A stretch of 63,188 nucleotides of DNA, filler included, from 5 parts of 5 records of this genome joined end to end with filler, not necessarily neighbours in it; one strand, 5' to 3'; positions 37,573 through 56,064 are shown, numbered from the whole stretch's first letter. The notes: a model not told the origin generated them from the sequence alone. Numbers and translations are program-made.

Positions 37573-37672
37573 NNNNNNNNNNNNNNNNNNNNNNNNNNNN
37601 NNNNNNNNNNNNNNNNTTAATTAATTAANNNNNNNNNNNNNNNNNNNNNNNNNNNNNNNNNNNNNNNNNNNN
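37573..37672. other. Artificial contig spacer
   Basis: N44-TTAATTAATTAA-N44. Confidence 0.99.
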
Positions 37673-37673
37673 A

Positions 37674-39270: not shown

Positions 39271-39277
39271 TAAAGAG

Positions 39278-39838
39278 ATGATGAAGAATTTTACAAAAAT
39301 AGTTTTCGCTTTAATAGCATTGGTAACAATAGTTTCATGTGGAGACGTACAACGTAAACCAAGTGTGCAATATATGCCAGACATGTATGTGGCTGTTCCT
39401 TATGAACCAAATGGAGCAAATGGTTTAAATGATAATCCGAATGGATCTAATTTAAAACCTGTAACAGGAACAATATCAAGAGGAAACGTACCATATGATT
39501 ATCCAAATACTAATGATGGATATACAGCAGCTTTGACTGATTTAAAAGCACCATTTGGAGCTACTGAAGAAAATTTAGCTAACGGTAAGAAAATGTATGA
39601 TATATACTGTACATCTTGTCATGGAAAAAATGGTGATGGTAATGGATATTTAGTACAAAGAGATAAATTTAGCGGAATTCCTAATTATAAAGATAGAGCT
39701 ATTACTCAAGGTAGCATTTATCATGTAATTATGTACGGAAGAGGAATTATGGGATCTCATGCTTCTCAGTTAACGGGTAAAGAACGTTGGCAAGTAGTAC
39801 ATTATGTAGAGAAGTTAAGAAACGATTTATTAAAATAA
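39278..39838 (+). CDS. actE: Alternative complex III monoheme cytochrome c lipoprotein ActE
   Basis: Lipobox IVSC, YMPDMY, heme motif CTSCH, distal Met in GRGIMGSH. Confidence 0.92.
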   Translation: MMKNFTKIVFALIALVTIVSCGDVQRKPSVQYMPDMYVAVPYEPNGANGLNDNPNGSNLKPVTGTISRGNVPYDYPNTNDGYTAALTDLKAPFGATEENLANGKKMYDIYCTSCHGKNGDGNGYLVQRDKFSGIPNYKDRAITQGSIYHVIMYGRGIMGSHASQLTGKERWQVVHYVEKLRNDLLK

Positions 39839-39864
39839 GTTTTTAAAAGATAGAATTAAAAGAT

Positions 39865-41274
39865 ATGTATCAATTCTCAGGAAAATTAAAAACATTCTCA
39901 ATTGCTTTAATGATTATTGGAGCTTTAAGTGTAGGATATAGTTTTTTTACTGCACCAAAAACAATTGAAGATGCAAAAGAAATTTTAGCAAGTCAACATG
40001 ATGCTCATGGAGCGACAACTGACCATGGAGTAACTAAAAAAGCTGCTCATGCTAAAGATACGCATAAAGAACCTAAAACAGCATCTCATACATCTGCAGA
40101 TAGCCATGCAGGTGATGAACATGCAGAACATGTTTTGCATGCTCTTCAAAATAAACCATGGGCTGCTTCATATGTAGCCATATTTTTCTTTTTAGGAATT
40201 TCTCTATTAGTATTAGCATTTTATGCTTCACAAAGAGTAGCACAAGCGGGTTGGTCTGTTGTTCTTTTTAGAGTAATGGAAGCAATTTCTGCAAATATAG
40301 TACCTGCAAGTATTTTAATGTTTGTAATGGTAATGACATCTGCAGGACACTTAAATCATCTGTTTACTTGGATGGGTGAAGGAGTTTTTGATCCGACTAG
40401 TGATAAATATGATGCTATAGTTGATGGTAAAAAATGGTGGTTAAATGTACCAGGATGGGCAATTAGATCAGTTGTATATTTAATTGGTTGGAATGTTTAT
40501 AGACATTTTGCTAGAAAATTCTCTATTGCAGAAGATACAGCAAATGATGGGAATAAAACTTATAAAAAGAATTACCATGCATCAGTAATATTTTTAGTAT
40601 TCTTTATGGTTACAGAATCTATGATGTCTTGGGATTGGATTATGGGATTAGATCCACACTGGTTCTCTACTTTATTTGGATGGTATGTTTTAGCAACTTT
40701 ATTAGTAAGTGCATTAACAGTAATTGCTTTTGTTACAATTTATTTAAGAGCAAAAGGACATTTACCATTTGTAAATGATAGTCATATTCATGATTTAGCC
40801 AAGTTTATGTTTGGATTCTCTGTATTCTGGACATACTTATGGTTCGCTCAATTTATGTTAATTTGGTATGCAGATATGTCAGAAGAAACTGTATATTTCA
40901 TTGCAAGATTTAACGAATATAAATTGCCGTTTTTAGGAATGGTTGTTATGAACTTTGTATTCCCAATATTATTATTAATAAACAGTGATTTTAAAAGCAG
41001 ACCTTGGTTTGTTATCATTGGAGGTTTAGTAATTTTAACAGGACATTACATAGATGTATTTGTAATGATAATGCCAGCTACGGTTGGAGATCAATGGTCA
41101 ATTGGTATACCAGAATTAGGAGCTTTAGCTTTCTGTATTGGGCTATTTATATTTGTTACTTTTAGAGCATTTTCTAAAGCAGCACCATTAGCAAAAGGAA
41201 ATCCTTTCTTACATGAAAGTGAGCATTTCCATTATTACAATATTGAACACGAAGGAGAAGAAAATCATCATTAA
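39865..41274 (+). CDS. actF: Alternative complex III subunit ActF
   Basis: Multi-TM; WDWIMGLDPHWFSTLFGW, HDLAKFMF, WTYLWFAQFMLIWY. Confidence 0.9.
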   Translation: MYQFSGKLKTFSIALMIIGALSVGYSFFTAPKTIEDAKEILASQHDAHGATTDHGVTKKAAHAKDTHKEPKTASHTSADSHAGDEHAEHVLHALQNKPWAASYVAIFFFLGISLLVLAFYASQRVAQAGWSVVLFRVMEAISANIVPASILMFVMVMTSAGHLNHLFTWMGEGVFDPTSDKYDAIVDGKKWWLNVPGWAIRSVVYLIGWNVYRHFARKFSIAEDTANDGNKTYKKNYHASVIFLVFFMVTESMMSWDWIMGLDPHWFSTLFGWYVLATLLVSALTVIAFVTIYLRAKGHLPFVNDSHIHDLAKFMFGFSVFWTYLWFAQFMLIWYADMSEETVYFIARFNEYKLPFLGMVVMNFVFPILLLINSDFKSRPWFVIIGGLVILTGHYIDVFVMIMPATVGDQWSIGIPELGALAFCIGLFIFVTFRAFSKAAPLAKGNPFLHESEHFHYYNIEHEGEENHH

Positions 41275-41300
41275 TAATTAAATAATTAAGACAAAATAAT

Positions 41301-42326
41301 ATGCTAGCTTTATTTTATATTTTTATAGCTGTTGCAATAGGTGTAAGCTTTTGGCAAATCACTAGAATTTTAAATTTTAGAACCGTAATTGCTACAGACA
41401 AAGATAATGACACTCAAGGAAAATTATTCCTTTGGTTTACAGCATTCTTATATGCAATGATGATTTATTGCCTAATATTTATGAATGTAATTATGTTACC
41501 AGAATCAGCTTCTTTTGAAGGAGAACATGATGATAACTTATTTAATATTACTTTTATTTTAATTGGAGTAGTTCAATTTATAATGCAATTTTTATTATTC
41601 TATTTTGCATATAAATATAGAGGTAAGAAAGAAAATAAAGCTTTGTTTTATGCAGATAGTCATAAGTTAGAAGCAATTTGGACAATTACTCCTGCAGTAG
41701 TATTAGTTGTTTTAATCGGTTATGGATTATGGCAATGGAATAACATTATGGACTTATCTGATGCTAAAGATCCTTTAGTTATAGAAGTTTATTCAAAGCA
41801 GTTTCAATGGGAAGCTCGTTATGCTGGAGCCGATAATACTTTAGGTAGAGGTAATGTTAACTTTATAAAAGGTGTTAACACAATGGGTGTTGATATGAGC
41901 GATGTAAATGCAAAAGACGATAAAAAAGTTTCTGCTATTGATCCTGTAATGTACTTGCCTAAAGGTAGAAAAGTTGTTTTTAAATTTAGATCTCAAGATG
42001 TATTACACTCTGCATATATGCCACACTTTAGAGCTCAAATGAATTGTGTTCCTGGAATGGTAACTGAGTTTGGGTTTACACCAAAGTATACTACAGAAGA
42101 AATGAGAGTTCAATCTGAAGTAGTAGAAAAAACAGCGATCATTAATAAAATTCGTAAAGACAAAGGAGAAGATCCTTATGAGTTTGACTATGTCTTATTA
42201 TGTAATAAGATTTGTGGTGCATCTCATTATGGAATGCAAATGAAAATTGTTGTTGTTGAACAAGATGAGTTTAACAAATGGTACGCAGAACAACCTACTT
42301 TAGGTGAACAATTAGCTGTAAAATAA
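41301..42326 (+). CDS. coxB: Cytochrome c oxidase subunit II
   Basis: LEAIWT..PA, QFQW, SQDVLHS and CuA site CNKICGASHYGM. Confidence 0.95.
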   Translation: MLALFYIFIAVAIGVSFWQITRILNFRTVIATDKDNDTQGKLFLWFTAFLYAMMIYCLIFMNVIMLPESASFEGEHDDNLFNITFILIGVVQFIMQFLLFYFAYKYRGKKENKALFYADSHKLEAIWTITPAVVLVVLIGYGLWQWNNIMDLSDAKDPLVIEVYSKQFQWEARYAGADNTLGRGNVNFIKGVNTMGVDMSDVNAKDDKKVSAIDPVMYLPKGRKVVFKFRSQDVLHSAYMPHFRAQMNCVPGMVTEFGFTPKYTTEEMRVQSEVVEKTAIINKIRKDKGEDPYEFDYVLLCNKICGASHYGMQMKIVVVEQDEFNKWYAEQPTLGEQLAVK

Positions 42327-42358
42327 GATATTTATAATTAGACAATAAAAAATAAGAT

Positions 42359-44128
42359 ATGTCAGATCATCATCATAAAGAAACATTTGTAACTAAATAT
42401 ATATTTAGTCAAGATCACAAAATGATTTCTAAACAGTTCTTAGTAACTGGTATATTTATGGGAATTATTGGAGTGTTTATGTCTATGCTATTTCGTATGC
42501 AAATTGCATGGCCAGAAAAGTCGTTCACAATTATTGAAGCTTTCTTAGGAAGTCATCAAACTGATGGAGTAATGGACCCAGATATGTATTTAGCATTAGT
42601 TACAATACATGGTACAATTATGGTATTTTTTGTATTAACTGCTGGATTAAGTGGAACGTTTTCAAACCTATTAATTCCATTACAAATTGGTGCTAGAGAT
42701 ATGGCGTCAGGCTTTTTAAACATGTTATCATATTGGTTATTCTTTATTTCTAGTATAATCATGGTAATTTCTTTATTTGTAGAAGCTGGACCAGCTTCTG
42801 CAGGTTGGACAATTTATCCACCTTTAAGTGCTTTACCTCAGGCTATTCCTGGATCAGGTTTAGGAATGACTTTATGGTTAGTATCTATGGCAATATTTAT
42901 TGCTTCTTCTTTAATTGGATCATTGAACTATATCGTTACAATTTTCAATTTAAGAACTAAAGGAATGAAAATGACAAGAATGCCATTAACAATGTGGGCA
43001 TTCTTTATTACTGCAATTATCGGTGTAGTTTCTTTCCCTGTTTTATTATCTGCTGCGTTATTATTAATTTTTGATAGAAGTTTTGGAACATCATTCTACT
43101 TATCAGATATTTTTATTAGTGGAGAAGTATTACATTATCAAGGAGGATCACCAGTATTATTTGAACACTTATTTTGGTTCTTAGGACATCCAGAAGTATA
43201 TATTGTATTATTACCAGCATTAGGAATAACATCAGAAATTATAGCAACAAACTCACGTAAACCTATTTTTGGTTACCGTGCAATGATTGGTTCTATTATG
43301 GCAATTGCATTTTTATCTACAATTGTTTGGGGACACCACATGTTTATTTCAGGTATGAATCCTTTCTTAGGTTCTGTATTTACATTTACAACTTTATTAA
43401 TTGCTATTCCATCTGCGGTAAAAGCATTTAACTATATCACAACATTGTGGAAAGGGAATCTTCAAATGAATCCTGCCATGTTATTTTCTATTGGATTAGT
43501 TTCTACATTTGTTACTGGAGGATTAACAGGATTAGTATTAGGAGATTCGGCTTTAGATATTAACGTTCATGATACATATTTTGTAGTAGCTCACTTCCAT
43601 TTAGTTATGGGTGTGTCAGCAATTTTAGGAATGTTTGCTGGTGTTTATCACTGGTTCCCTAAAATGTATGGTAAAATGATGAACAAAACTTTAGGTTATT
43701 GGCATTTCTGGATTACAATGATTTCTGCTTACGGAGTATTTTTCCCTATGCACTTTATTGGATTAGCAGGTTTACCAAGAAGATATTATACTAATACAAA
43801 TTTCCCAATGTTTGATGACGTTGCTGATGTAAACGTTGTAATTACATTGTTTGCAATCTTAGGAGGTTTAGCACAATTGATTTTCTTAGCAAATTTCTTT
43901 ATCTCTATCTATAGAGGTAAAACAGCTACACAAAATCCTTGGAATTCAAACACATTAGAATGGACTACACCAGTAGAACACATTCATGGAAACTGGCCAG
44001 GTAAAATTCCAGAAGTACACCGTTGGGCTTATGACTATAGTAAGGTTGATGAAAATGGTGAATATATTCATGGTGAAGATTTTGTATTGCAAACAGTACC
44101 ATTGAAAGACGGAGAAGATCCTTCTTAA
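42359..44128 (+). CDS. coxA: Cytochrome c oxidase subunit I (A1 type)
   Basis: DHKMI, TIHG, GWTIYPPLS, FWFLGHPEVY, VWGHH, HDTYFVVAHFH. Confidence 0.97.
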   Translation: MSDHHHKETFVTKYIFSQDHKMISKQFLVTGIFMGIIGVFMSMLFRMQIAWPEKSFTIIEAFLGSHQTDGVMDPDMYLALVTIHGTIMVFFVLTAGLSGTFSNLLIPLQIGARDMASGFLNMLSYWLFFISSIIMVISLFVEAGPASAGWTIYPPLSALPQAIPGSGLGMTLWLVSMAIFIASSLIGSLNYIVTIFNLRTKGMKMTRMPLTMWAFFITAIIGVVSFPVLLSAALLLIFDRSFGTSFYLSDIFISGEVLHYQGGSPVLFEHLFWFLGHPEVYIVLLPALGITSEIIATNSRKPIFGYRAMIGSIMAIAFLSTIVWGHHMFISGMNPFLGSVFTFTTLLIAIPSAVKAFNYITTLWKGNLQMNPAMLFSIGLVSTFVTGGLTGLVLGDSALDINVHDTYFVVAHFHLVMGVSAILGMFAGVYHWFPKMYGKMMNKTLGYWHFWITMISAYGVFFPMHFIGLAGLPRRYYTNTNFPMFDDVADVNVVITLFAILGGLAQLIFLANFFISIYRGKTATQNPWNSNTLEWTTPVEHIHGNWPGKIPEVHRWAYDYSKVDENGEYIHGEDFVLQTVPLKDGEDPS

Positions 44129-44145
44129 ATAAAGAATTTATTATT

Positions 44146-44176
44146 AAAAAGCCTTTCCATTATGGAGAGGCTTTTT
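44146..44176 (+). terminator. Rho-independent terminator after coxA
   Basis: AAAAAGCCTTTCCA-TTA-TGGAGAGGCTTTTT hairpin with a T-tract. Confidence 0.88.
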
Positions 44177-44248
44177 GTTTTTTATTTGTATCTTTTCATT
44201 AGTTATTGCTTTGTAACAAATATCACTTTATAAAAACCTATTTTCAAT

Positions 44249-44256
44249 TATATTTG
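44249..44256 (+). promoter_or_regulatory. Bacteroidota -7 promoter element upstream of ruvB
   Basis: TATATTTG matches TAnnTTTG and is followed by CA; 5 nt before the ATG. Confidence 0.65.
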
Positions 44257-44261
44257 CAATT

Positions 44262-45284
44262 ATGAATGAAAATCTAAATCCCGATAATACCAATTATTCT
44301 AGCGAAGAAATGGATGTAGAAAAAAAACTACGCCCACTTACTTTTGATGATTTTACGGGTCAAGATCAAGCTATTGAAAACCTAAAAATATTTGTAGAAG
44401 CTGCAAATATGAGAGGCGAAGCTTTAGATCATACTTTGTTTCATGGTCCTCCAGGATTGGGTAAAACTACCTTAGCTCACATATTAGCGAATGAACTACA
44501 AGTAGGTATAAAAGTTACTTCTGGTCCAGTATTAGATAAGCCAGGTGATTTAGCTGGTTTATTAACAAATTTAGATGAAAGGGATGTGCTTTTTATTGAT
44601 GAAATTCATCGATTAAGTCCTATTGTAGAAGAATATTTGTATTCTGCTATGGAAGATTATAAAATTGACATTATGATTGAATCTGGACCGAATGCCAGAA
44701 CCGTTCAAATCAATTTAGAGCCTTTCACTTTAATTGGAGCAACCACAAGGTCTGGTTTACTTACTTCACCAATGAGAGCTAGATTTGGAATAAGTAGTAG
44801 ATTAAACTATTATAAAAAAGAATTATTAACCACAATCATTCAGCGAAGTGCACATATATTAAAAGTTCCTATTTCAATGGAAGCTGCAATTGAAATTGCT
44901 GGAAGAAGTAGAGGAACGCCAAGGATTGCCAATGCATTATTAAGAAGAGTTCGTGATTTTGCTCAAATTAAAGGAAATGGAAGCATCACAATAGAAATTG
45001 CTCAATATGCATTACAAGCTTTGCGTGTAGATGCACATGGATTAGATGAAATGGATACCAAAATTTTACTAACTTTAATAGATAAATTTAAAGGAGGACC
45101 AGTAGGTATTTCTACTTTAGCTACTGCTGTGGCAGAAAATGCCGAAACCATTGAAGAAGTTTATGAGCCATTTTTAATACAAGAAGGATTTATTATAAGA
45201 ACACCTAGAGGAAGAGAAGTAACAGATGCTGCTTATAAACATTTAGGAAAACAAAAAGGAAGAAATCAAGGAGAATTATTTTAA
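44262..45284 (+). CDS. ruvB: Holliday junction branch migration helicase RuvB
   Basis: [46 protein letters not shown]. Confidence 0.98.
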
Positions 45285-47011
45285 TGAATATTAAAAAAAT
45301 AATACCAATATTAGAATGGTTACCAAACTATACAACCTCTCGTTTTAAAGGAGATTTTATAGCTGGTATTACTGTAGGTATTATCTTAATTCCTCAAGGT
45401 ATTGCTTACGCTTTAATTGCAGGATTGCCTCCAATTTATGGATTGTATACAGCATTAGTTCCTCAAGTTATGTACGCTATTTTTGGATCATCTAGACAAG
45501 TTGCAATTGGGCCAGTAGCTATGGATTCTTTAATAGTAGCAGCCGGAGTGTCAACATTAGCATTAACAGGAACGGATAGTTATATTGAGATTGCAATATT
45601 ATTAGCTTTAATGGTTGGTGCAATTCAACTTTTAATGGGAGTTTTTAGACTAGGTTTTATTGTTAATTTTTTATCTAAACCAGTAATATCTGGATTTACA
45701 TCTGCAGCTGCATTAATAATTGGAGTAAATCAATTTAGAAACTTATTGGGAGTAGATTTTACGCGCAGTAATCAAATCCAATATGTTGCTATAGACATCT
45801 GGAAAAATATTACAGAATTAAATACTTCAACAACAATTATTGGAGTTTCAGCTGCAATAATAATCATAATCTTAAGAAAAATTAACAAGAAAATTCCTAA
45901 TGCATTAATAGTTGTAATATTAGGAATTGTAGCTGTAAAATATTTTGGATCATCATTTGAAAGTGTAGCTATTATTAAAGATGTACCATCAGGATTACCA
46001 TCTTTTGGGGTGCCAGAAATTGATATAGATCAACTTAAGGAGTTAATACCAATTGCTTTAACTTTGGTACTTGTTGGGTTTTTAGAAACGATTTCTATTG
46101 GAAAATCATTAGAATCTAAACAAGATGAATATAGAATAAGACCTAACCAAGAATTAGTAGCTTTAGGAGTAGGAAACATGGTAGGTTCATTATTTAAAGC
46201 ATATCCATCAACAAGTAGTTTTTCAAGATCAGCAATTAATCAAGAATCAGGTGCAACAACTGGAATGGCAGCGTTAATTTCTGTTGGAATGGTAATTTTA
46301 ACGTTACAGTTTTTAACTCCTGTTTTTTATTATTTACCAAAAGCTGTATTAGCTGCTATTATTATGGTTGCTGTATTTGGTTTGGTAAATATAAAAGAAG
46401 GAATTCATCTTTGGAAAACGAATAATTTAGATTTTTGGTTACTTTTTAGCACTTTTATATCTACTTTATTTCTTGGAATAGAATATGGAATTATAGCAGG
46501 AGTTGGTTTGTCAATTATCATATTGATATTTAGAACATCTAAACCATATATTGCTGTATTAGGTGCTGTTCCAGATTCAGATTTTTATAAAAATAGTGAT
46601 CGTTTTAATAATGTAGTAATAGAAAAAGATATTTTGGTTGTTAGGTTTGATGCACAATTATTTTTTGCCAATGCAAGTTATTTTAGAGATAATTTAGACG
46701 AATTGGCAGATAAAAAAGGAGAGGCATTAAAATTGATCGTCATAGATGCAGAAAGTATTAATAGAGTTGATAGTACAGGAGCAGATATGTTAATGGAACG
46801 AGTTAAATACTATAAAAGTAAAGGAGTGTCTTTTTATTTTGCAGGTGTTAAAGGACCTGTAAGAGACTCACTTTTTAGAGCAGGAATATTAAATATAATA
46901 GATATCAATCACTTTTTTATGAGCATTTTTACAGCGGTAAAATTTCATAAAACTGGAGATCGAGAACATCAAAAAAAGTATGCAGAATATATTCATCATA
47001 CTTATAAATAA
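45284..47011 (+). CDS. sulP: SulP/SLC26 anion transporter with STAS domain
   Basis: GDFIAGITV..IPQGIAYA..AGLPPIYGLY, NQEL, SFSRS; STAS motif LFFANA..DSTG. TAATG overlap with ruvB. Confidence 0.95.
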   Translation: MNIKKIIPILEWLPNYTTSRFKGDFIAGITVGIILIPQGIAYALIAGLPPIYGLYTALVPQVMYAIFGSSRQVAIGPVAMDSLIVAAGVSTLALTGTDSYIEIAILLALMVGAIQLLMGVFRLGFIVNFLSKPVISGFTSAAALIIGVNQFRNLLGVDFTRSNQIQYVAIDIWKNITELNTSTTIIGVSAAIIIIILRKINKKIPNALIVVILGIVAVKYFGSSFESVAIIKDVPSGLPSFGVPEIDIDQLKELIPIALTLVLVGFLETISIGKSLESKQDEYRIRPNQELVALGVGNMVGSLFKAYPSTSSFSRSAINQESGATTGMAALISVGMVILTLQFLTPVFYYLPKAVLAAIIMVAVFGLVNIKEGIHLWKTNNLDFWLLFSTFISTLFLGIEYGIIAGVGLSIIILIFRTSKPYIAVLGAVPDSDFYKNSDRFNNVVIEKDILVVRFDAQLFFANASYFRDNLDELADKKGEALKLIVIDAESINRVDSTGADMLMERVKYYKSKGVSFYFAGVKGPVRDSLFRAGILNIIDINHFFMSIFTAVKFHKTGDREHQKKYAEYIHHTYK

Positions 47012-47022
47012 AATAATAGAAT

Positions 47023-48435
47023 ATGAAAGTTGAACAAATTTACACAGGATGTTTAGCACAAGGAGCTTATTACATTGAAAGTAATGGCGAAGTAGCAATT
47101 ATTGATCCCTTAAGAGAGGTGTCTCCTTATTTAGAAAGAGCAGATAAAGACAATGCTACTATTAAATACATTTTTGAAACTCATTTTCATGCAGATTTTG
47201 TAAGTGGACATGTAACTTTGGCTGAAAAGTCTGGAGCTAGCATAGTATTTGGACCAAATGCAGAAATGAATTACGATGCTCATGTAGCAAAAGATAATGA
47301 AGAATTTAAAATAGGTGATGTAACAATAATTGCATTGCACACTCCTGGTCATACAATGGAAAGTACTTCTTATTTATTAAGAGATAACCAGGGAAAAGAT
47401 TATGCATTGTTTAGTGGAGATACTTTGTTTTTAGGAGACGTAGGAAGACCCGATTTAGCTCAGAAAGTTGGGGTGTTAACTGAAGAAGATTTAGCCGGAT
47501 TTTTATTTGATAGTTTAAGAAATAAAATAATGACACTAGCTGATGATGTTATTGTATACCCAGGTCATGGAGCTGGATCTGCATGCGGAAAAAACTTAAG
47601 TAAAGATACTATTGGAACAATTGGAGATCAAAAGAAAACAAATTATGCTTTAAGAGCAGATATGACTAAAAGTGAGTTTATTAAAGAAGTTACAGATGGT
47701 TTATTACCGCCTCCAGCTTATTTTCCTGCAAATGTTAAACTAAACAAAGAAGGGTATAAAGCCATAGATGAAGTAATAAAAACAGGAACTAAAGCTTTAT
47801 CTGTTGAAGATTTTGAAAAAGTGGCCAATGAGACAGATGCATTAATTTTAGATGTTCGTCATCAATCAGAATTTATACATGGATTTATTCCTCGTTCAAT
47901 TTTTATAGGAATTGATGGAGGATTTGCCCCTTGGGTTGGTGCATTAATTAAAGATATTGATCAACCAATTTTATTAGTTGCTCCAGAGGGTAGAGAAGAA
48001 GAAGTAATTATTAGACTTTCAAGAGTTGGATTTGATAATACTTTAGGGTATTTAAAGGGTAGTTTTGATGCTTGGAAAGCATCTGGTAAGGATATTGACA
48101 CTTTGCGTTCAGTTTCTGCTGATACTCTTGAAAAAGAAATCAAAGAAAATGCTGTGCCAGTATTTGATATTAGAAAACCTGGTGAATATGATAATGAACA
48201 TATTGTAGATGTGCCAAGTACACCGTTAGATTTTTTAAATGATCATATAAATGAATTTCCAAACGACAAAGATTTTTACGTGCATTGTGCAGGTGGATAT
48301 CGTTCTGTTATTGCATCGTCTATCTTAAAAGCAAGAGGGATTCATAATGTTATTGATGTTGCAGGTGGGTATGGAGCAATTAAAGAGACTAGTATTTTGA
48401 GAACAGAAAAAGTGTGTCCGTCTACTTTAAAATAA
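47023..48435 (+). CDS. CstB/Blh-like persulfide dioxygenase: MBL fold plus two rhodanese domains
   Basis: ETHFHADFVSGH, HTPGHT, FSGDTLF, YPGHGAGSACGK; C-terminal active loop HCAGGYRS. Confidence 0.88.
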   Translation: MKVEQIYTGCLAQGAYYIESNGEVAIIDPLREVSPYLERADKDNATIKYIFETHFHADFVSGHVTLAEKSGASIVFGPNAEMNYDAHVAKDNEEFKIGDVTIIALHTPGHTMESTSYLLRDNQGKDYALFSGDTLFLGDVGRPDLAQKVGVLTEEDLAGFLFDSLRNKIMTLADDVIVYPGHGAGSACGKNLSKDTIGTIGDQKKTNYALRADMTKSEFIKEVTDGLLPPPAYFPANVKLNKEGYKAIDEVIKTGTKALSVEDFEKVANETDALILDVRHQSEFIHGFIPRSIFIGIDGGFAPWVGALIKDIDQPILLVAPEGREEEVIIRLSRVGFDNTLGYLKGSFDAWKASGKDIDTLRSVSADTLEKEIKENAVPVFDIRKPGEYDNEHIVDVPSTPLDFLNDHINEFPNDKDFYVHCAGGYRSVIASSILKARGIHNVIDVAGGYGAIKETSILRTEKVCPSTLK

Positions 48436-48443
48436 ACATAAAA

Positions 48444-48836
48444 ATGAAAAAAATTATTCTAATAGGTTTGTTAATAAGTTTTGTTTCATGTAATAGTCAA
48501 GATAAAAAAACGACTATTATTTTGGATATTGAGGTAGCAGAGTTTCAACAATTGATTTCTAAAAAGAATGTACAATTAATTGATGTTAGGACACCTGTAG
48601 AATTTAAAAAAGGACATCTTAAAAATGCAAAATTGATAAATTTTTTTGATAAGGATTTTAAATCAGAAATTTTAAAAAAGATTGATAAGAATAAGCCTGT
48701 TTATGTTTATTGTAAATCTGGTGGTAGAAGTGCTAAAGCAGCTAAGATTTATAAGGCAGCTGGTTTTAAAAAAGTGTTTAACTTGCTAGGAGGATTTAAT
48801 GCATGGTCTGCTAGTGGACTAGAAATAGAAAAATAA
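48444..48836 (+). CDS. Rhodanese-domain lipoprotein
   Basis: Probable start ATG 48444 (MKKIILIGLLISFVSC, lipobox). LIDVRTPVEFKKGHL and active loop YCKSGGRS. Confidence 0.88.
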   Translation: MKKIILIGLLISFVSCNSQDKKTTIILDIEVAEFQQLISKKNVQLIDVRTPVEFKKGHLKNAKLINFFDKDFKSEILKKIDKNKPVYVYCKSGGRSAKAAKIYKAAGFKKVFNLLGGFNAWSASGLEIEK

Positions 48837-49102
48837 TGGAAACAAACATATATATAGAGAACTTAAAATGTGGCGGTTGTGCTGCCACTATAAAAAAAGG
48901 AGTTTTATCCATAGAAAATGTAACTGATGTAAAAGTTAATGTAGAGGATTCATTGGTTGCTATTACTTCATCTACTGATGTAACTGAAACAATTAAAGAT
49001 AAACTCTCTAAAATGGGTTATCCTGAAGTTGGAGATAAAAATACCATGATTCATAAAGCAAAATCTTATGTGAGTTGTGCAACTGGAAAAATGAGTTCTT
49101 AA
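48836..49102 (+). CDS. Heavy-metal-associated (HMA/CopZ-like) domain protein
   Basis: NLKCGGC metal-binding motif, MGYP, extra C-terminal Cys (YVSCATG). TAATG overlap with the upstream gene. Confidence 0.88.
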   Translation: METNIYIENLKCGGCAATIKKGVLSIENVTDVKVNVEDSLVAITSSTDVTETIKDKLSKMGYPEVGDKNTMIHKAKSYVSCATGKMSS

Positions 49103-49121
49103 AACGCAAAATAATATTATA

Positions 49122-49151
49122 AAAAAGCCGATGCAATTGCATCGGCTTTTT
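49122..49151. terminator. Bidirectional rho-independent terminator
   Basis: Perfect palindrome AAAAAGCCGATGCAATTGCATCGGCTTTTT between convergent genes. Confidence 0.92.
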
Positions 49152-49173
49152 CTTTTTCATATAACTCTCCCAT

Positions 49174-51519
49174 TTAAAACTTTAATGTAACTCCAACTAA
49201 AAAGTTACGAGTTGCTTGAGGATAATATCCAGCACCATCTAAAGTTGTTGTTTGTGTTGGTGAAGACCAGGTGTCATCATAAGTATAATAATAACCTCTG
49301 TCAACAAACTCTTTATCAAAAATATTATTTATCAAACCAGTAAAAACGATTTCACTAAAAATGTTTTTAGGTTTAACTACGTAAGTAAAGTTTAAGTCAG
49401 ATGTAAAATAACTGTCTAAAACATCATTTGAAGAAACAACACTATTTAAATTACTCATTAATTGTTTCCCAACATATTTAGACAAGAAAGAAAATTGTAA
49501 ATTTTCTGAAGCATTAAAAACCAATGCATTTCCTGCAATTACTGACGGAGAAAATGAAATATCTGTTTTACCTAAATCAGTAAGGTTTCCATTTATTGAA
49601 GAGATGAAATCAGTGTTTCTATTTTCACTTAAAGCTACGTTTGGCCTCAAATCAAATTTCTTTGATAATTTAATATTAGCATCAATTTCTAATCCTAATC
49701 GGTAACTCTTTCCACTTGTAGCTCTAATTGGTGCACCAACATTATCAATTGCTCCAGTTAAAACCAATTGGTTTGTATATTTCATATAATATACATTGGT
49801 GTTTAAAGTCAATCTTTCATTTTTTAAACGCCAACCTAATTCATAATCATGTAAATTTTCGTGAGTGCTTATGCCACCTTCAAAATCGTTTCTGTTTGGT
49901 TCTTTATTTGCTACTGCAAAAGAGAAATATGCATGTTGATTTTGGTTGATTTTATATGTCGCTCCAAATTTTGGATTGAAGAAATTATAAGTTTCATTTA
50001 CATTGATTGGATCTCTATCTGATGTTAACCCTTTAGTTTGGTAATTTACATTTCTAAATTGTAAATCTGCATAAGCAATCCAGTTTTCACTTAAATTAAA
50101 AGTAGCTTTAGAAAACATACTAAAGTCTTTTTTCTTTGAGTTACTTTCGTAATAACGATCTCTAATTTTTGTAGTTGGAGCTAAATCTTCTCCCCAAATT
50201 ACTTCTCCAAAATGATCATTCTTATAATCACTATAAGAAAAACCTGAAATAATTTCTACATCATCTTTTTTGTAAGTAGCATTAAAGTTAGCTACATAAA
50301 ACTTATTGTCTAACCAACGTCTAACTATTACATCAGTACCATCAACTATTAAATTGTTATAGTCTGCTGCATCTCTATTGTCTTTATACTGTTCAAAATA
50401 TCCTTGACCTTTGGTGTAGTTTAGCCCAATATTAGTAGACCAATTTTCATTGATTTTTTCATTCCAATGAAGTTGATAATGGTTTTGATCATAGTTATCG
50501 ACTTCATTTTCATAGGTATACGGATTCTGTCTTCTGTCTGCTTCTAACTGAGCTGCATCTATTCCAGCCCACGCTTGATATGTTCTTTCTTTTCCTCCAA
50601 AAGTCAATACTTTAATCAATGTATTATCATCTACATAAGCACCTTGTAAGAAATACGATTTTAAATCTGTAGATGCTCTATCGATATATCCATCAGAATA
50701 TATTTTAGACAATCTACCAGAAATTTCGATATGATCATTTATTTTTCCTGTACTAAACTTTACAGTGTGTTTTTTAGTATTAAAAGAACCAAAAGAATTT
50801 GAAACCTCTGCAAAAGATTTTTCAGAAACCGCATCAGTTAAAATATTTAAACTTGCACCAAAAGCAGCTGTTCCATTTGTAGAAGTTCCAACACCACGTT
50901 GTAATTGTAAACTTTGAGTGGATGAAGCAAAGTCTCCCATATTTACCCAAAAAGTACCTTGACTTTCTGCATCGTTATATGGAATTCCGTTTATAGTAAC
51001 ATTTACTCTTTCTGCATTAGAACCACGAACATTAATGTAGGTATATCCAATTCCTGCACCAGCATCAGAAGAACTTACGACAGAAGGTAAATAGTTTAAT
51101 AACATCGGAATGTCTTGACCTAAGTTACGTTTTGCAATTTCTTTTTTATCAAGATTAGAGTGTGTTACTGGTGAATTCGCTTTTACTCTAACTGCAGAAA
51201 CAAGAACTTCATCTAAAACATTATTGTCTGTTTGTAAAGAGAAATTTAATACTTCATTTTGATTTGCAATTGTGATAGATTTAGAAATTGTTTTGTAACC
51301 AATAAAACGAACTTGAACATTATAAGAACCATTAGAAACATTTAATTGATAGTTTCCATTAAAATCTGTAGAAGTTCCTTTCTTTAATTTTGTTATCAAT
51401 ACAGAAGCACTGGCTAACGGTTGATTATTTTCATCAGAAACTTTTCCGGTAATTGAAAATGTTTGGGAGTTTGCGTGCATGCACACAAACAAGAATAAGA
51501 AAAAAGTGATTTTTTTCAT
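49174..51519 (-). CDS. TonB-dependent receptor, probable thiamine-family outer-membrane transporter
   Basis: Signal peptide, CarboxypepD_reg-like N-domain, LDEVLV TonB box, plug (SDAGAGIGYT, VTINGIPYND, QRGVGTSTNG), C-terminal Phe. Downstream of a TPP-like riboswitch. Confidence 0.9.
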   Translation of the reverse strand: MKKITFFLFLFVCMHANSQTFSITGKVSDENNQPLASASVLITKLKKGTSTDFNGNYQLNVSNGSYNVQVRFIGYKTISKSITIANQNEVLNFSLQTDNNVLDEVLVSAVRVKANSPVTHSNLDKKEIAKRNLGQDIPMLLNYLPSVVSSSDAGAGIGYTYINVRGSNAERVNVTINGIPYNDAESQGTFWVNMGDFASSTQSLQLQRGVGTSTNGTAAFGASLNILTDAVSEKSFAEVSNSFGSFNTKKHTVKFSTGKINDHIEISGRLSKIYSDGYIDRASTDLKSYFLQGAYVDDNTLIKVLTFGGKERTYQAWAGIDAAQLEADRRQNPYTYENEVDNYDQNHYQLHWNEKINENWSTNIGLNYTKGQGYFEQYKDNRDAADYNNLIVDGTDVIVRRWLDNKFYVANFNATYKKDDVEIISGFSYSDYKNDHFGEVIWGEDLAPTTKIRDRYYESNSKKKDFSMFSKATFNLSENWIAYADLQFRNVNYQTKGLTSDRDPINVNETYNFFNPKFGATYKINQNQHAYFSFAVANKEPNRNDFEGGISTHENLHDYELGWRLKNERLTLNTNVYYMKYTNQLVLTGAIDNVGAPIRATSGKSYRLGLEIDANIKLSKKFDLRPNVALSENRNTDFISSINGNLTDLGKTDISFSPSVIAGNALVFNASENLQFSFLSKYVGKQLMSNLNSVVSSNDVLDSYFTSDLNFTYVVKPKNIFSEIVFTGLINNIFDKEFVDRGYYYTYDDTWSSPTQTTTLDGAGYYPQATRNFLVGVTLKF

Positions 51520-51644
51520 TTTAAAAATTTTAAAACGAATAAAAAGAGGTAATTATTCTTGTGTTAATATTGAATAATTAATTGTTGTCATTATTTCTGA
51601 TTATTAATCATAAAAATGACTTGTTATACAAATGGCGATTATCG

Positions 51645-51712
51645 CCTCCCTTGGCAGCATTATCTGCCCAGGTTCTTTGGGTATGATCTCAGCCTTTCGG
51701 CACCCCTTTATG
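51645..51712 (-). ncRNA. TPP riboswitch-like aptamer (variant P4/P5 junction)
   Basis: Minus strand reads AAAGGGGTGCCGAAAGGCTGAGATCATACCCAAAGAACCTGGGCAGATAATGCTGCCAAGGGAG. Conserved GGGGUG, CUGAGA, UACCC, ACCUG, AUAAUG and AGGGA elements are present. Confidence 0.9.
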
Positions 51713-51721
51713 AGAACGTTG

Positions 51722-51729
51722 CAAAAGTA
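51722..51729 (-). promoter_or_regulatory. Bacteroidota -7 promoter element for the riboswitch-TonB receptor transcript
   Basis: Minus strand TACTTTTG(CA) matches TAnnTTTG, just upstream of the aptamer. Confidence 0.7.
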
Positions 51730-51766
51730 ATTCAGATTTTTGAATTGGAAAACAAGAATCGTGTTT

Positions 51767-52171
51767 TTATTCAATATTAGGTTTTTTTCTCATTTTCTTT
51801 TTTTGAGAAATCTTTTTTTTGTTTTCTGCTTTTTTTAAGATAGATGATTTGCTAGGTTTTGTAGCTTTTCTAATTTTTTGACGTTTTAAAGCATCAGAAA
51901 TTAATTGAAGAAATCGTTTAATAGCAATTTCCTTGTTTCTATGTTGACTTCTGCTTTCATCACAGAATAAGGTTAGTATATTTTCTTTATTAATCTTATT
52001 ACTAAGTTTCTCTTGAATTCTTTCTTTTTGAATTTCTGATAATGAAATTGCCTCTTTTACATTAAAAGTCAATTCTATTTTTGAAGAAACCTTATTTACA
52101 TGTTGGCCACCAGCTCCAGAACTTCTTATAGCTTTAAATTGTAATTCTTTAATCAGGTTTTTTGTGTTCAA
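51767..52171 (-). CDS. arfB: Alternative ribosome rescue peptidyl-tRNA hydrolase ArfB
   Basis: RSSGAGGQHVNKVSSK, SRSQHRNK; basic C-terminal tail RKATKPSKS. Confidence 0.95.
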   Translation of the reverse strand: MNTKNLIKELQFKAIRSSGAGGQHVNKVSSKIELTFNVKEAISLSEIQKERIQEKLSNKINKENILTLFCDESRSQHRNKEIAIKRFLQLISDALKRQKIRKATKPSKSSILKKAENKKKISQKKKMRKKPNIE

Positions 52172-52173
52172 AC

Positions 52174-52776
52174 TTATTCATTTAAAGATTCTGAAAACGA
52201 GCTAAGGTTTTTTCTACTTTTTATAATTTCATCAATTGCTTTAATAGCAGTTTTTAATCTTGTTTCCTTATCACCTTGTAATAAAATATATGGGCGATGG
52301 TATTTTTTTAACGCTTTTTCAAAAGCCTTAAACATTTCTATTCTTAGTTCTGGCCTATCACGTAAATCATCTTCTTCCCACGGTGTGTCTATATAAGTTA
52401 AAAAGTATAAATCATACCTGTTTTCAATTGCAGCTTCATCTAAAAGAGGATCTACAAAACCTCCATAATATTCTTCTGAATATACTTTCGTTTCTAACAA
52501 ATCTGTATCACAAATCAATACTTTGTCAGCTTTTTTAGCTAGTCTATTTTCAATTTCCATTTGCCCAACAGCAATCGGAATTAAATCATCAGCTTCGCAA
52601 GTTTTTCGCTCGTTATTCCATTTTTTTTGCAAATATTCTCTTGCAAATTCTGGTGCCCAAACAGTATTGTAATGACGAGCTAATTGTTTAGATAATGTAG
52701 TTTTTCCAGTAGACTCTGGCCCAAATAATACAACTTTTATAATGTTTGCTGGTTGCTGTCTAAGCTCTTTTTCCAT
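52174..52776 (-). CDS. NadR-type P-loop kinase domain protein (AAA_28)
   Basis: GPESTGKTTL, PEFAREY, ICDTD, YDLYFL, PWEEDDLRD. No NMNAT or HTH domain. Confidence 0.88.
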   Translation of the reverse strand: MEKELRQQPANIIKVVLFGPESTGKTTLSKQLARHYNTVWAPEFAREYLQKKWNNERKTCEADDLIPIAVGQMEIENRLAKKADKVLICDTDLLETKVYSEEYYGGFVDPLLDEAAIENRYDLYFLTYIDTPWEEDDLRDRPELRIEMFKAFEKALKKYHRPYILLQGDKETRLKTAIKAIDEIIKSRKNLSSFSESLNE

Positions 52777-53366
52777 GCGTTATATCCTTGATAAGCTAAA
52801 ATTAAAAATATGGTAAACTGAATTCCTGAAAACCCTAATCCTTTTATAAAATACAAAGGTACAGAAATGATATTTCCTGCAATCCATAAAGACCAATGTG
52901 CTAGTTTTTTATTAGCCATTAACCACATTGCCGCAAAGAAAATTCCAGTTGTAAATGTGTCAAAATAATCAGTAATTCTATCAAAACGATTAAAATATAA
53001 ATACACACAAACCACAAAGATGGCAGTAAATAAAAATATTCCTAAGGCTTTTAATTTGTCTTTTTGAGTAGTTCTAGTAATTTCTATATGATGGTTTTCA
53101 ACCAATCGTGTCCACATATACCACCCGAAAATACTCATTAATGTATAATAAATATTAATGATTAAATCTCCGTATAAAGTGAATTGATAACAGATGTAAA
53201 CATAAATTACGGTGCTAATTATTCCTGTTGGATATACTAAAATACTTTCCTTTTTTGCATAAATAACTGAAGCAATGCCAAAAACAACAGCACAGATTTC
53301 CAAGACTATATTTAAGGTTGTTGCTGTTCTGTAAGGTTCGAGAAAAAAATCAAAAATTTGGTTCAT
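52737..53366 (-). CDS. pnuC: PnuC family vitamin transporter
   Basis: Multi-TM; YYTLMSIFGWYMW, FDTFTT, WLMANK..HW.LW. Probable ATG at 53366. Confidence 0.9.
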   Translation of the reverse strand: MNQIFDFFLEPYRTATTLNIVLEICAVVFGIASVIYAKKESILVYPTGIISTVIYVYICYQFTLYGDLIINIYYTLMSIFGWYMWTRLVENHHIEITRTTQKDKLKALGIFLFTAIFVVCVYLYFNRFDRITDYFDTFTTGIFFAAMWLMANKKLAHWSLWIAGNIISVPLYFIKGLGFSGIQFTIFLILAYQGYNAWKKSLDSNQQTL

Positions 53367-53610
53367 AATTACTTCTGTCTGATTTAACAATTTTTAGATT
53401 CATTACACAGTTGTCTTGATTTTCAAATGAAGTTTTAATCTCTTTAGTCAAGAAAGGCATTAAAGTATCAAAATCACCATATATCTGAGTACTCAATGGG
53501 TTTTCTATTACGGTGAATTTAGAAGCTCTCAAGTTTTTTATAAATGCAATGATATGGTCCTCAAAATCATTTTGAAGAGGTAATAAAGTAAGTTCTATTG
53601 ATATTTTCAT
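53350..53610 (-). CDS. Thiamine-binding protein family (YkoF/DUF77-like)
   Basis: 86 aa; ISIELTLLPL...FIKNLRAS...NPLSTQIYGDFD fits the ferredoxin-like Thiamine_BP pattern. Confidence 0.72.
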   Translation of the reverse strand: MKISIELTLLPLQNDFEDHIIAFIKNLRASKFTVIENPLSTQIYGDFDTLMPFLTKEIKTSFENQDNCVMNLKIVKSDRSNYEPNF

Positions 53611-53637
53611 CAGCTAATAATTGAGTTGTAAAAGTAC

Positions 53638-54366
53638 TTATTGTTTTTTCAAATCATTAAAAAATGAAGCATCATTTTCAAAAGCTGTTCCAATTACTAC
53701 TATATCTGCACCTGCATTGAAAGCGATTTCTAATTGTTCTTTTGAACGAATTCCTCCACCTACAATTAATGGAATAGATAAGTTTTCAGAAACTTCTTTT
53801 ATGATTTTTTGGCTGACTGCCTCAAAAGCACCTGATCCAGCTTCAAGATAAATGATTTTTTTGCCAGAAAACTTACCTGCTAATGCAGTATTTACAATTA
53901 GTTCGACTTCATTTTGAGAAATTGGTTTTGTATTACTAACTCGTTGTACTGCGGTTTCTTTTTTTCCGTCGATTAGTATATAACCAGTTGGAATAATTTC
54001 TAGTTTCGAAGTCTTTAATAAAGGTACAGATTTTACGTGTTGTTCAATTAAATATTCAGGATTCCTACCTGAAAGCAAACTTAAAAATAAGATCCCGTCT
54101 GCTTTATTTGTAATTTGATTAACATCACCTGGGAATAAAATTATTGGTAATTGGGTGGCTTCTTTAATTGCTAAAACAACTTCTTCTGTAAGATTATTTT
54201 CATCTGTACTTCCTCCTACAAATATATGTGTGGCAATTGATTGATGTACTTTTTCAAAAAATGAAAAAATGTTTTGAATCTCCATTTTTTCTGGGTCAAT
54301 TAATACAGCTAACAATTTTTTACCTTGTTGTTTTGCTAATAAAATGTTTTGATAAAATTCTTTCAT
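53638..54366 (-). CDS. Geranylgeranylglyceryl/heptaprenylglyceryl phosphate synthase (GGGPS/PcrB family, group II-like)
   Basis: LIDPEK, FVGGS, ILFPG, LSLLSGRNPEYLI, PTGYILIDG, YLEAGSGA, IVGGGIR. Confidence 0.92.
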   Translation of the reverse strand: MKEFYQNILLAKQQGKKLLAVLIDPEKMEIQNIFSFFEKVHQSIATHIFVGGSTDENNLTEEVVLAIKEATQLPIILFPGDVNQITNKADGILFLSLLSGRNPEYLIEQHVKSVPLLKTSKLEIIPTGYILIDGKKETAVQRVSNTKPISQNEVELIVNTALAGKFSGKKIIYLEAGSGAFEAVSQKIIKEVSENLSIPLIVGGGIRSKEQLEIAFNAGADIVVIGTAFENDASFFNDLKKQ

Positions 54367-54369
54367 AAA

Positions 54370-54999
54370 TTAATTGAAAGCATACACGCAAGTAAACCCT
54401 TCAAATTCTAAAAAGTAAACATGATATGAGTTTTTTTCACCATCATAATTTATAGTTCCAGTAGTTTCTCCAGAATCAAATTTGAAATCTTCGATGTAAA
54501 TATTTTCTAAAAAACGTAATTTTTTCTTTCCATAGATTTTATATAAAGATTCTTTAGCTCCCCATACTATGGTTAATTTACTAATTAAAGCACTATGATT
54601 TGCAATGGTTTTATATTCTTGAAAGGGTGTAAATTTATGAGCAATTTTAAGAATTTTATCTCGTTGCATTTCAATATCTATTCCAACCGGAATTTCATTA
54701 GAAACAATTATTCCAGAGAAGGTAAAAGAATGAGTTATTGAAATGTGTTTGCCATTTTTTAAATGTGGTTTTCCAAATTCATCATAAAACAAATCAGAAT
54801 CATTCAAATTTACTTCTTTTAAAAGATGTCTAACACTCAAAAAGCCACGTTGATGTAATTCAGATTTCATGTTATCAACTCTATTTTGACTATTTTCTGT
54901 TAAATCAATCCCAATAGAAAGTTCTTCAAAAGATTCTGAAATCTTCCAAATCAATACTTTAGTGTTTTTATTAACATTTATCGTCTTGTAAAGAGGCAT
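54370..54999 (-). CDS. 4'-phosphopantetheinyl transferase superfamily (Sfp-like) protein
   Basis: YDEFGKPHL, ISITHS, VGIDIE, WGAKESLYK. Confidence 0.92.
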   Translation of the reverse strand: MPLYKTINVNKNTKVLIWKISESFEELSIGIDLTENSQNRVDNMKSELHQRGFLSVRHLLKEVNLNDSDLFYDEFGKPHLKNGKHISITHSFTFSGIIVSNEIPVGIDIEMQRDKILKIAHKFTPFQEYKTIANHSALISKLTIVWGAKESLYKIYGKKKLRFLENIYIEDFKFDSGETTGTINYDGEKNSYHVYFLEFEGFTCVYAFN

Positions 55000-55019
55000 A
55001 TTTTTTAAAAGTTATTCCG

Positions 55020-55027
55020 TAACTTTG
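55020..55027 (+). promoter_or_regulatory. Bacteroidota -7 promoter element upstream of ahcY
   Basis: TAACTTTG(CA) matches TAnnTTTG, 41 nt before the ATG. Confidence 0.7.
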
Positions 55028-55068
55028 CAGCTCGAAATTTTGATATAAAAACAAAGATACAAATAAAT

Positions 55069-55491
55069 ATGAGCACAAATACAGCTACATACGTACCGTT
55101 TAAAGTTAAAGATATTTCTTTAGCAGACTGGGGAAGAAAAGAAATTGAATTGGCAGAAGCAGAAATGCCAGGATTAATGTCTTTAAGAGAAGAATATAAA
55201 GAAAGTCAACCGTTAAAAGGAGCAAGAATTGCAGGATGTTTACATATGACAATTCAAACTGCTGTTTTAATTGAAACTTTACAAGCTTTAGGAGCTCAGG
55301 TTACTTGGAGTTCTTGTAATATTTTTTCTACACAAGATCAAGCAGCTGCTGCAATTGCAGGTGCAGGAACTGCAGTGTACGCATGGAAAGATATGACTGA
55401 AGAAGAATTTGACTGGTGTATTGAGCAAACTTTATTCTTTGGAGAAGACAAGCAACCATTAAACATGATTTTAGATGATGGTGGAGATTTA
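55069..55491 (+). CDS. ahcY: Adenosylhomocysteinase, 3' partial
   Basis: [45 protein letters not shown]. Confidence 0.97.
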
Positions 55492-55591
55492 NNNNNNNNN
55501 NNNNNNNNNNNNNNNNNNNNNNNNNNNNNNNNNNNTTAATTAATTAANNNNNNNNNNNNNNNNNNNNNNNNNNNNNNNNNNNNNNNNNNNN
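55492..55591. other. Artificial contig spacer
   Basis: N44-TTAATTAATTAA-N44. Confidence 0.99.
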
Positions 55592-56064
55592 CGGCGCGAG
55601 AAATTTCCAGCACCAGAACGGAGGGGTACGGTGGTAGGGTTGCGGGAGAATATGCAGGGGTCAAATCCATACATACATGGTTCCGAGAAATATATAACAG
55701 GGCCCACTCGGCCAGAAAAGATGACCGTACTTTTCAGGATCACTTCTAAAGTACAGTCTCTCGTTTGGGTTTTTCCCAAATTTGACATTACGCCTTACCC
55801 GCGAGGATGACAGGAAGCCCCTGTGCCAGAGCGCGAAATAAGTGCGTCGGTGCTGTTTATCAGCGCTGATTTGCACGGTTGAGGACCGCCCTCGGTGCAT
55901 CATTCCAGCCCGAGTTGGACGGTACAGCGGCATTCTTAGCGGTAGGCACCAACAATTTCCCAATTTTACTAAAAGATCCACCAACCGGGTCTTTTCTGAC
56001 AGTAGGCTGATGTAAAGCTCCAGCGATTGCGCTGTGCCGGCTCAAGCCGCTCCTTCTCGAGAAA

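Follow-up and report, generated by a model that had tools for sequence, protein, structure and literature searches.

What does a riboswitch of the TPP family sense when the loop at its pyrophosphate site is missing, and which gene does it serve? This question is raised by an element on the minus strand of the window (the whole stretch of DNA analysed here, 63,188 nt including filler), in which an initial annotation had recognised a TPP-like aptamer with an intact pyrimidine-sensing half and a collapsed second arm, and had proposed that it responds to unphosphorylated thiamine, TMP or a pyrimidine precursor rather than to TPP. The window is composed of separate contigs, whose joins at 37574-37673 and 55493-55592 are marked by a TTAATTAATTAA spacer set in runs of N and by jumps in G+C content (from about 60% to 30% and back up). 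The contig bearing the riboswitch spans approximately 37674-55492 (about 17.8 kb, 30% G+C) and carries flavobacterial genes; judged by the identity of the receptor encoded next to the element, its nearest relatives are an unclassified Flavobacteriaceae MAG (86%) and Polaribacter (75-80%). An adenosylhomocysteinase gene (55069-55539) is truncated by the end of this contig. The adjoining high-G+C contig contains a full-length match to the U3 small nucleolar RNA (RF00012; 55721-55943, plus strand, 83.2 bits, E = 1.2e-16), which indicates that it is eukaryotic DNA from the same assembly.

An E-value scan of the 701 nt at 51300-52000 (cmscan) identifies a match to the TPP riboswitch model RF00059 at 51630-51718 on the minus strand, with 37.0 bits and E = 1.4e-5; the gathering cut-off of the model is 54.3 bits, and no TPP match is found at that threshold anywhere in the window. 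The minus strand reads GGGGU-GCC-GAAA-GGC-UGAGA-UCAU-ACCC-AAAGAA-CCU-G-GGCAG-AUAAUG-CUGCC-A-AGG-GA, then GGCGA-UAA-UCGCC, as the initial annotation had described it. The pyrimidine-sensor arm (51679-51706, minus strand) comprises P2 (GGGG-U / A-CCC), a minimal P3 (GCC-GAAA-GGC) and a J3/2 containing UGAGA. CUGAGA, GGGG/CCC and P3 all fit the RF00059 model, P2 and UGAGA are invariant across the 75 and 65 distinct sequences of the two alignments described below, and the third P3 pair covaries (CG 46, UG 18, UA 10), in full agreement with the view that this half is intact. In the alignment of the window to RF00059, P4 and L5 match as well, P3a is deleted and P1 contains non-standard pairs. L5, which closes P5 and would serve for docking on P3, is conserved as (A/G)UAAUG, in line with the uUAAUa of the model.

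The size of P3 varies among the 80 leaders compared, from a GNRA-capped hairpin of 3 bp, as in the window, up to A+T-rich inserts of 48-117 nt resembling long imperfect hairpins (31/80 loci, within L001-L059), the remaining aptamer being unchanged. Immediately 5' of the aptamer lies a conserved flank, GUUCUCAUAAA (51707-51717, minus strand), whose AAA extends the pairing with a downstream box discussed below and whose UCUCA (51711-51715) is near-invariant in relatives, 2-4 nt 5' of GGGG. UCUCA is complementary to the UGAGA of the ligand core; no consistent covariation was found at the positions flanking a UCUCA-UGAGA pairing, and no partner was demonstrable.

The second arm is where the element departs from its family. 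In E. coli thiM, as described in PMC3764141, the T-loop residues of J3/2 are U39-G40-A41-G42-A43, whereas G60, C77 and G78 lie at the metal-pyrophosphate site, the direct contact with the pyrophosphate being made by G78 alone. In the window, the P4-P5 arm (51649-51672, minus strand) reads CCU / G / GGCAG / AUAAUG / CUGCC / A / AGG, and the RF00059 consensus 'CCggCGuAGGGA' stands opposite its CUGCC-AAGGGA, so that the CG of J5/4 is absent; the missing bases correspond to C77 and G78. Of the loop there remains a G facing an A, or a single bulged G, and P5 has 5 bp. The G that follows CCU is invariant in the 80 sequences of the alignment used below, as is AGG(G/A)A, and this unpaired G next to P4 may correspond to G60.

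The receptor protein was used to scan species-representative genomes, which yielded 80 loci, 79 of them with upstream DNA (L065 starts inside the gene), from Polaribacter, Tenacibaculum, Lacinutrix, Lutibacter, Urechidicola, Autumnicola, Zunongwangia, Mesonia, Flavobacterium and unclassified Flavobacteriaceae MAGs. The same kind of aptamer is present in all 79. Two types of arm can be distinguished among the 80 sequences, window included: that of the window, CCU-G-GGC(A/G)(G/A)-(G/A)UAAUG-(C/U)UGCC-A-AGGGA (26/80), and a second one, CCU-(A/G)G-AACAG-(G/A)UAAUG-CUGUU-U-AGG(G/A)A (54/80). No CG occurs in J5/4 in any of these 80 sequences, and with the Rfam consensus and 14 canonical flavobacterial copies as reference for the canonical arm, the C77-G78 of J5/4 is lacking from the window and from 79/79 loci.

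The pairing that takes the place of the loop can be followed in two alignments. In the first (A1; 80 sequences, 75 distinct rows, with pairs counted), 99.9% of cells are in standard pairs, compared with 96.5% after shuffling and no more than 60.7% after sliding the partners; of the P5 pairs, the two next to the junction are AU in 52 and GC in 23 rows, with zero unpaired, and the second arm type has a fourth P4 pair (AU 43, GU 9). The second alignment consists of 65 distinct rows drawn from family and phylum matches in other genomes and, being fitted to a model, is biased towards that model's structure; with this bias, it has 99.1-99.3% of cells paired and both-sided changes in 8/9 P4-P5 helix pairs, including the junction pair (AU 43, GC 16, GU 3, CG 1, other 2). 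An uninterrupted helix, in which just one G is unpaired or mismatched, stands in place of the internal loop. The tabulation of J4/5 and J5/4 over Flavobacteriaceae and the covariation analysis, both of which the initial annotation had named as checks, thus return a CG-less arm in 79/79 loci and a longer P5 supported in both alignments, and its reading of the arm, with the CG gone and the loop collapsed over a P5 of 5 bp, holds for the whole set of loci and not just for the window. It had also named a one-off degenerate copy or a sequencing error as a case that would overturn it; this is contradicted by the same 79/79 loci and by two independent metagenomic DNA runs, whose contigs span 51532/51534-51900 and differ at a single site, 51851, which lies outside the aptamer.

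With R1, a covariance model derived from A1, matches are found in 148/151 evenly sampled Flavobacteriaceae genomes, usually one per genome and mostly at 67-98 bits. In each of the best 30 of these family matches, the arm is collapsed and the aptamer is followed by a receptor ortholog. Among the 20 weakest of the matches listed, 17 likewise combine the collapsed arm with a downstream receptor ortholog, and 3 are another element; those 17 weaker copies display further compensated versions of P5 (ACAAA/UUUGU, GGCUG/CAGUC, GAUAG/CUAUC) and a covarying P4 (CUU/AAG). No CG was found in J5/4 in these 50 inspected matches. RF00059 exceeds its own cut-off in 42/151 genomes of the family, and by coordinate matching only two receptor-linked copies reach it in this sample (G067, 55.0 bits; G126, 54.5 bits), whereas a copy that is not receptor-linked does so in about 40/151 genomes. 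As nearly all copies of the variant score below the Rfam cut-off, surveys relying on the RF00059 gathering score miss it.

Canonical TPP riboswitches are also found in this family, and they are organised differently. All 14 copies examined in Flavobacteriaceae keep GAACCUGAU...CG(U/A)AGGGAAAAGUU, i.e., GAU...CG(U/A), and have a clear AACUUU/AAAGUU P1, and 13/14 precede thiC. The variant and a canonical copy coexist in three Tenacibaculum genomes (3/5 genomes searched). Retention of the canonical loop on thiC leaders within the same family suggests that its loss is specific to the receptor-linked function and is not neutral. A denser arrangement is seen in genome G086 (contig C3, 1120560-1124867; L139, L098), in which three RF00059-type matches occur within 4.3 kb, beginning with a 60.5-bit copy, continuing with the variant and the receptor gene to which it is linked, and ending with a 78-bit canonical copy that precedes thiC.

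Beyond the family, a phylum-wide sample gives R1 matches at E <= 1e-6 in 58/151 genomes. Inspection of 29 phylum loci revealed 19 without the CG, all of which precede a receptor homolog, and 10 with the CG, of which 5 precede a more distant receptor homolog with 37-46% identity (5/24 receptor-linked matches). The receptor family is thus under THI-type control throughout the phylum, and its flavobacterial branch uses the pocket-less form.

The gene that follows the riboswitch in the window (49174-51519, minus strand) encodes a TonB-dependent outer-membrane receptor of 781 aa, with the Pfam domains CarbopepD_reg_2 (PF13715), Plug (PF07715) and TonB_dep_Rec_b-barrel (PF00593), and its start codon lies 128 nt after the AGGGA of the aptamer. 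By these domains it fits the omr1 type, for which a Plug domain, a 22-strand barrel domain, an N-terminal signal peptide and a THI-type leader are expected. In the marine B1 papers, omr1 designates a TonB receptor near a TPP riboswitch, and its specificity is called unclear where it is discussed there (PMC10881298, PMC12442306). The link between the variant and an uptake receptor, also anticipated by the initial annotation, extends to 30/30 of the best family matches.

The B1 gene content of five relatives gives this receptor a physiological context. Two Polaribacter genomes contain the variant only, have neither thiC nor thiD, have thiE below cut-off or absent, and possess thiamine pyrophosphokinase; with this gene set they require the import of intact thiamine and are B1 scavengers. 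Three Tenacibaculum genomes have thiC, preceded by the canonical riboswitch, with thiD and thiE close by, and have no thiamine pyrophosphokinase, yet keep the variant and the receptor. The suggestion that the organism itself is a probable B1 scavenger therefore stands for the two Polaribacter relatives on the strength of their gene content and, for the organism of the window, is reasonable by extension from them.

The genes upstream of the riboswitch on the same strand (51767-53610) encode ArfB, an AAA_28 protein (NadR-kinase-like), a PnuC-family transporter and, in addition, an 86-aa ORF that matches Thiamine_BP weakly (23.4 bits, where the cut-off is 24.9). NCBIfam reads this group as PnuC with a NadR-type kinase, and the cargo of the transporter may be thiamine or nicotinamide riboside, either being possible. 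A functional tie between the PnuC-like, AAA_28 and Thiamine_BP-like genes and the riboswitch was considered and set aside, as these genes are upstream of it and the gene order is only partly shared among the 80 related loci (ArfB 46/80, AAA_28 37/80, PnuC 30/80).

How binding could be converted into a change in expression is suggested by the remainder of the leader. A putative sigma-A promoter box, TACTTTTG (51722-51729, minus strand), agrees with the TAnnTTTG given as the flavobacterial sigma-A -7 consensus in PMC9723704, and its TTTG is equidistant before the aptamer in the aligned leaders. Downstream of the aptamer, a conserved box, GAAUAAUUACCUCUUUUUAUUCG (51536-51558, minus strand), follows one pattern in 76/80 leaders, with one-base variants in the other 4, and ends 12-21 nt (mode 18) 5' of the first open ATG. 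The middle of the box, UACCUCUUU, is complementary over 8-11 consecutive bp to AAAGGGGUG, which is the 5' strand of P2 with the preceding AAA. Of 8 complete leaders folded, 5 contain this long-range helix in their minimum-free-energy structure; both strands of the helix are near-invariant, and the box variants (UACCUC, CGCCCC, UACCCC, CACCUC) are all compatible with the P2 5' strand, amounting to compatible changes and not to true covariation. A further conserved segment, AAUUAUUC (51572-51579, minus strand), seen across leaders as 'ttaattattcaa', is able to pair with GAAUAAUU of the box and does so in minimum-free-energy folds.

Together with the start-codon region, UUUUUAUUCG, which is the 3' half of the box, makes up a hairpin (51510-51544, minus strand, with the AUG at 51517-51519). 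Among 63 distinct leader ends, all three bases of the AUG are paired in 60 and paired to the box half in 46, with a mean z of -3.3 against shuffles, and the distal stem varies by genus (GUUUUAA/UUAAAAU, GUAAA/UUUAC, GUAA/UUAC). The fixed distance between box and start codon, together with the absence of a convincing terminator, favours translational control. We infer that without ligand the 5' strand of P2 would pair with the downstream box and draw the base of the start-codon hairpin away, so that the receptor is made, and that with ligand P2 would be locked in the aptamer, leaving the box to fold onto the start-codon region and translation to fall. On this model the output is most likely translational repression. 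In the full-leader fold of the window, formation of the long-range helix costs the start-codon hairpin only its lower four pairs and 11 bp persist, which leaves little predicted difference between the two states.

Transcription termination as the main output was set aside, the terminator scan having flagged only the optional GGCGAUAAUCGCC hairpin followed by AUUUGUAUAA, which is found in 18/80 leaders, and the hairpin of the box, GAAUAA/UUAUUC, consisting of no more than 6 A-U-rich pairs. A terminator-like hairpin occurs in some Tenacibaculum leaders. From a relative, an RNA-library contig of 1265 nt runs from the aptamer through the start of the coding sequence, and others cover only the two conserved islands; strand, starts and ends of transcripts are unreadable in these contigs, and DNA carry-over is possible.

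The two elements that the initial annotation had placed 3' of the aptamer fared differently. The extra hairpin, GGCGA-UAA-UCGCC (51634-51646, minus strand), is indeed present directly after the aptamer, but it is optional, with GGCGA-NNN-UCGCC in the 18 leaders mentioned above; it receives only a weak terminator call, and the AUUUGU that follows is unconvincing as a U tract. A P1 formed beyond it by AUAAA and UUUGU finds no support, the duplex in the window having -0.5 kcal/mol and z = +0.8. When the 13 nt before GGGG were folded as a duplex with the 22 nt after the aptamer or the optional hairpin, the result was no better than shuffles (mean z -0.12, with 4/80 loci below -2), and CGUUC/GAACG occurs in a subset of leaders. 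Without a supported conventional P1, the variant is unusual for the TPP family.

Any account of the ligand has to accommodate a conserved TPP-family element with a helix in place of its pyrophosphate loop, attached to a receptor gene and coexisting in some genomes with canonical copies. The explanation that best joins these observations, to which we assign a probability of about 0.6, is a functional TPP-family riboswitch before an omr1-type receptor that does not tell thiamine, TMP and TPP apart and whose output is translational repression. The RNA would recognise the aminopyrimidine-thiazole part of thiamine, without discriminating among the three forms, and would in effect read the total cytoplasmic thiamine pool. 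Replacement of the internal loop containing C77 and G78 by helix makes this loss of discrimination the most likely consequence, and the ligand range is plausible on these grounds. A precedent exists in outline: according to the brief statement in McCown et al. 2017 (PMC5473149), TPP riboswitch variants with a mutated pyrophosphate-binding core or P4-P5 have similar affinities for thiamin, TMP and TPP, and P4-P5 mutants occur in numerous bacteria, sometimes sharing a genome with normal copies, the work on them being cited there as 'Roth et al., in prep.'. Full-text literature searches returned no fuller later account of P4-P5-mutated TPP variants beyond this 2017 mention. The altered-ligand idea of the initial annotation, itself plausible, fits that statement, which points to a loss of discrimination and not to a new selective ligand; with the principle already in print in outline, the idea is not new in principle.

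It is unlikely, in our judgement, that the RNA has stayed TPP-selective through a rebuilt pocket (made, e.g., of the invariant unpaired G, neighbouring phosphates and Mg2+), such that the architecture changed and the ligand did not. This reading could draw on the invariance of the G after CCU and of AGG(G/A)A in the 80 sequences, as a metal-mediated phosphate contact and a preference for TPP could remain if that G is G60; on TPP being the end product that accumulates in scavengers with thiamine pyrophosphokinase; and on the 37-46%-identity receptor homologs of the phylum that stand behind CG-bearing aptamers, from which TPP control of the receptor family evidently exists. Against it, however, C77 and the sole direct-contact base G78 have been swapped, with their loop, for covarying pairs, the canonical loop is kept on the thiC leaders of the same genomes, and discrimination is lost in the P4-P5 mutants mentioned in PMC5473149. 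More doubtful still is a new selective ligand, whether HMP, AmMP or FAMP, or free thiamine with TPP rejected, which the receptor would then import. In its favour, the pyrimidine sensor is intact and the other pocket gone, prototrophic Tenacibaculum without thiamine pyrophosphokinase keep both variant and receptor, and the omr1 substrate is described as unclear in the part of PMC12442306 that deals with it; but HMP-type compounds would be unusable for the variant-only Polaribacter, which lack thiD and a good thiE and need intact thiamine, conservation of L5 and of the entire P4-P5 arm is what one expects if the ligand still bridges both arms, and no published support for such selectivity was found. 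The corresponding claim, that this is a separate riboswitch class accepting unphosphorylated thiamine or a pyrimidine degradation product and rejecting TPP, is improbable to a similar degree; were it true, the riboswitch would report external arrivals in place of the cofactor pool, and from its ligand one could learn the substrate of the abundant marine omr1 receptors. That the element is a decaying, non-functional relic of a TPP riboswitch or an artefact of assembly or sequencing, as its score under the Rfam threshold and the lack of a clear P1 might suggest, is scarcely credible in view of its presence in 148/151 genomes, its covariation, the identical aptamer in two independent metagenomes, and its constant placement with respect to the promoter box and to a conserved platform lying 12-21 nt upstream of the start codon. 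By all comparative criteria, the variant can be taken as functional.

The variant can be compared with several known systems. With the TPP riboswitch RF00059 (E. coli thiM, flavobacterial thiC leaders) it shares the two-arm layout, the UGAGA T-loop core, P2, P3, the CCU/AGG P4, a UAAU-type L5 and a link to a vitamin B1 gene; it differs in having neither the J4/5-J5/4 loop (C77, G78) nor P3a nor a supported P1, in a P5 of 5 bp versus 4, in a score of 37 bits that falls below 54.3, and in a platform that uses the 5' strand of P2. The variants of McCown, Corbino, Stav, Sherlock and Breaker (2017, RNA 23:995) resemble it in their mutations of P4-P5 or the pyrophosphate core, common in bacteria, and in co-occurring with a canonical copy in one genome, as seen here too, a likeness based on a text description that comes without sequences, taxa or gene associations. 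The HMP-PP riboswitch (thiS motif; Atilho et al. 2019, PMC6478431) likewise senses a thiamine-related compound other than TPP, and its existence shows that riboswitches of the B1 pathway respond to more than one ligand; in contrast, its aptamer, as characterised in that paper, is very small, sits within a terminator and is associated with thiS and thiazole genes, whereas the flavobacterial variant is a full-size aptamer before a receptor gene and without a terminator, and the E-value scan of 51300-52000 gave no match to the HMP-PP (thiS motif) family. Closest in gene context are the omr1 and OMthi-type receptors of Bacteroidota and other marine bacteria, where a TonB receptor likewise stands behind a THI-type riboswitch (PMC10881298, PMC12442306). 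In those papers, to the extent that they treat the riboswitch, it was found by RF00059 and its pocket goes undescribed, while here the pyrophosphate loop is absent family-wide. The anatomy of the variant, its near-universal presence in Flavobacteriaceae, its strict link to the receptor and not to thiC, and its conserved translational platform are undescribed in the literature searched.

Flavobacteriaceae rank among the major consumers of algal organic matter, and an external supply of vitamin B1 is needed by many of them. Their main B1-related riboswitch is the pocket-less form, present in 148/151 genomes versus about 40 with a canonical copy. If thiamine is read regardless of phosphorylation, synthesis of the receptor would track the whole vitamin pool instead of the cofactor alone, and the ligand of the riboswitch would be the best available clue to what the omr1 receptor imports. 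A genome that carries both a canonical thiC leader and a variant receptor leader moreover offers a natural matched pair for studying a two-arm aptamer after the loss of one pocket.

Finally, a second type of TPP-like aptamer was observed in three Flavobacteriaceae genomes (L119, L121 and L122; at the locus centres, on the minus strand). Its J5/4 is AC(U) and lacks G78, the element runs directly into a strong intrinsic terminator, and there is no same-strand ORF; in L121 the element is flanked by prfB and an unrelated gene and has an antisense orientation. An RF00059 score of 58 bits is reached by two of the three, and the element could be an orphan riboswitch or a small RNA.
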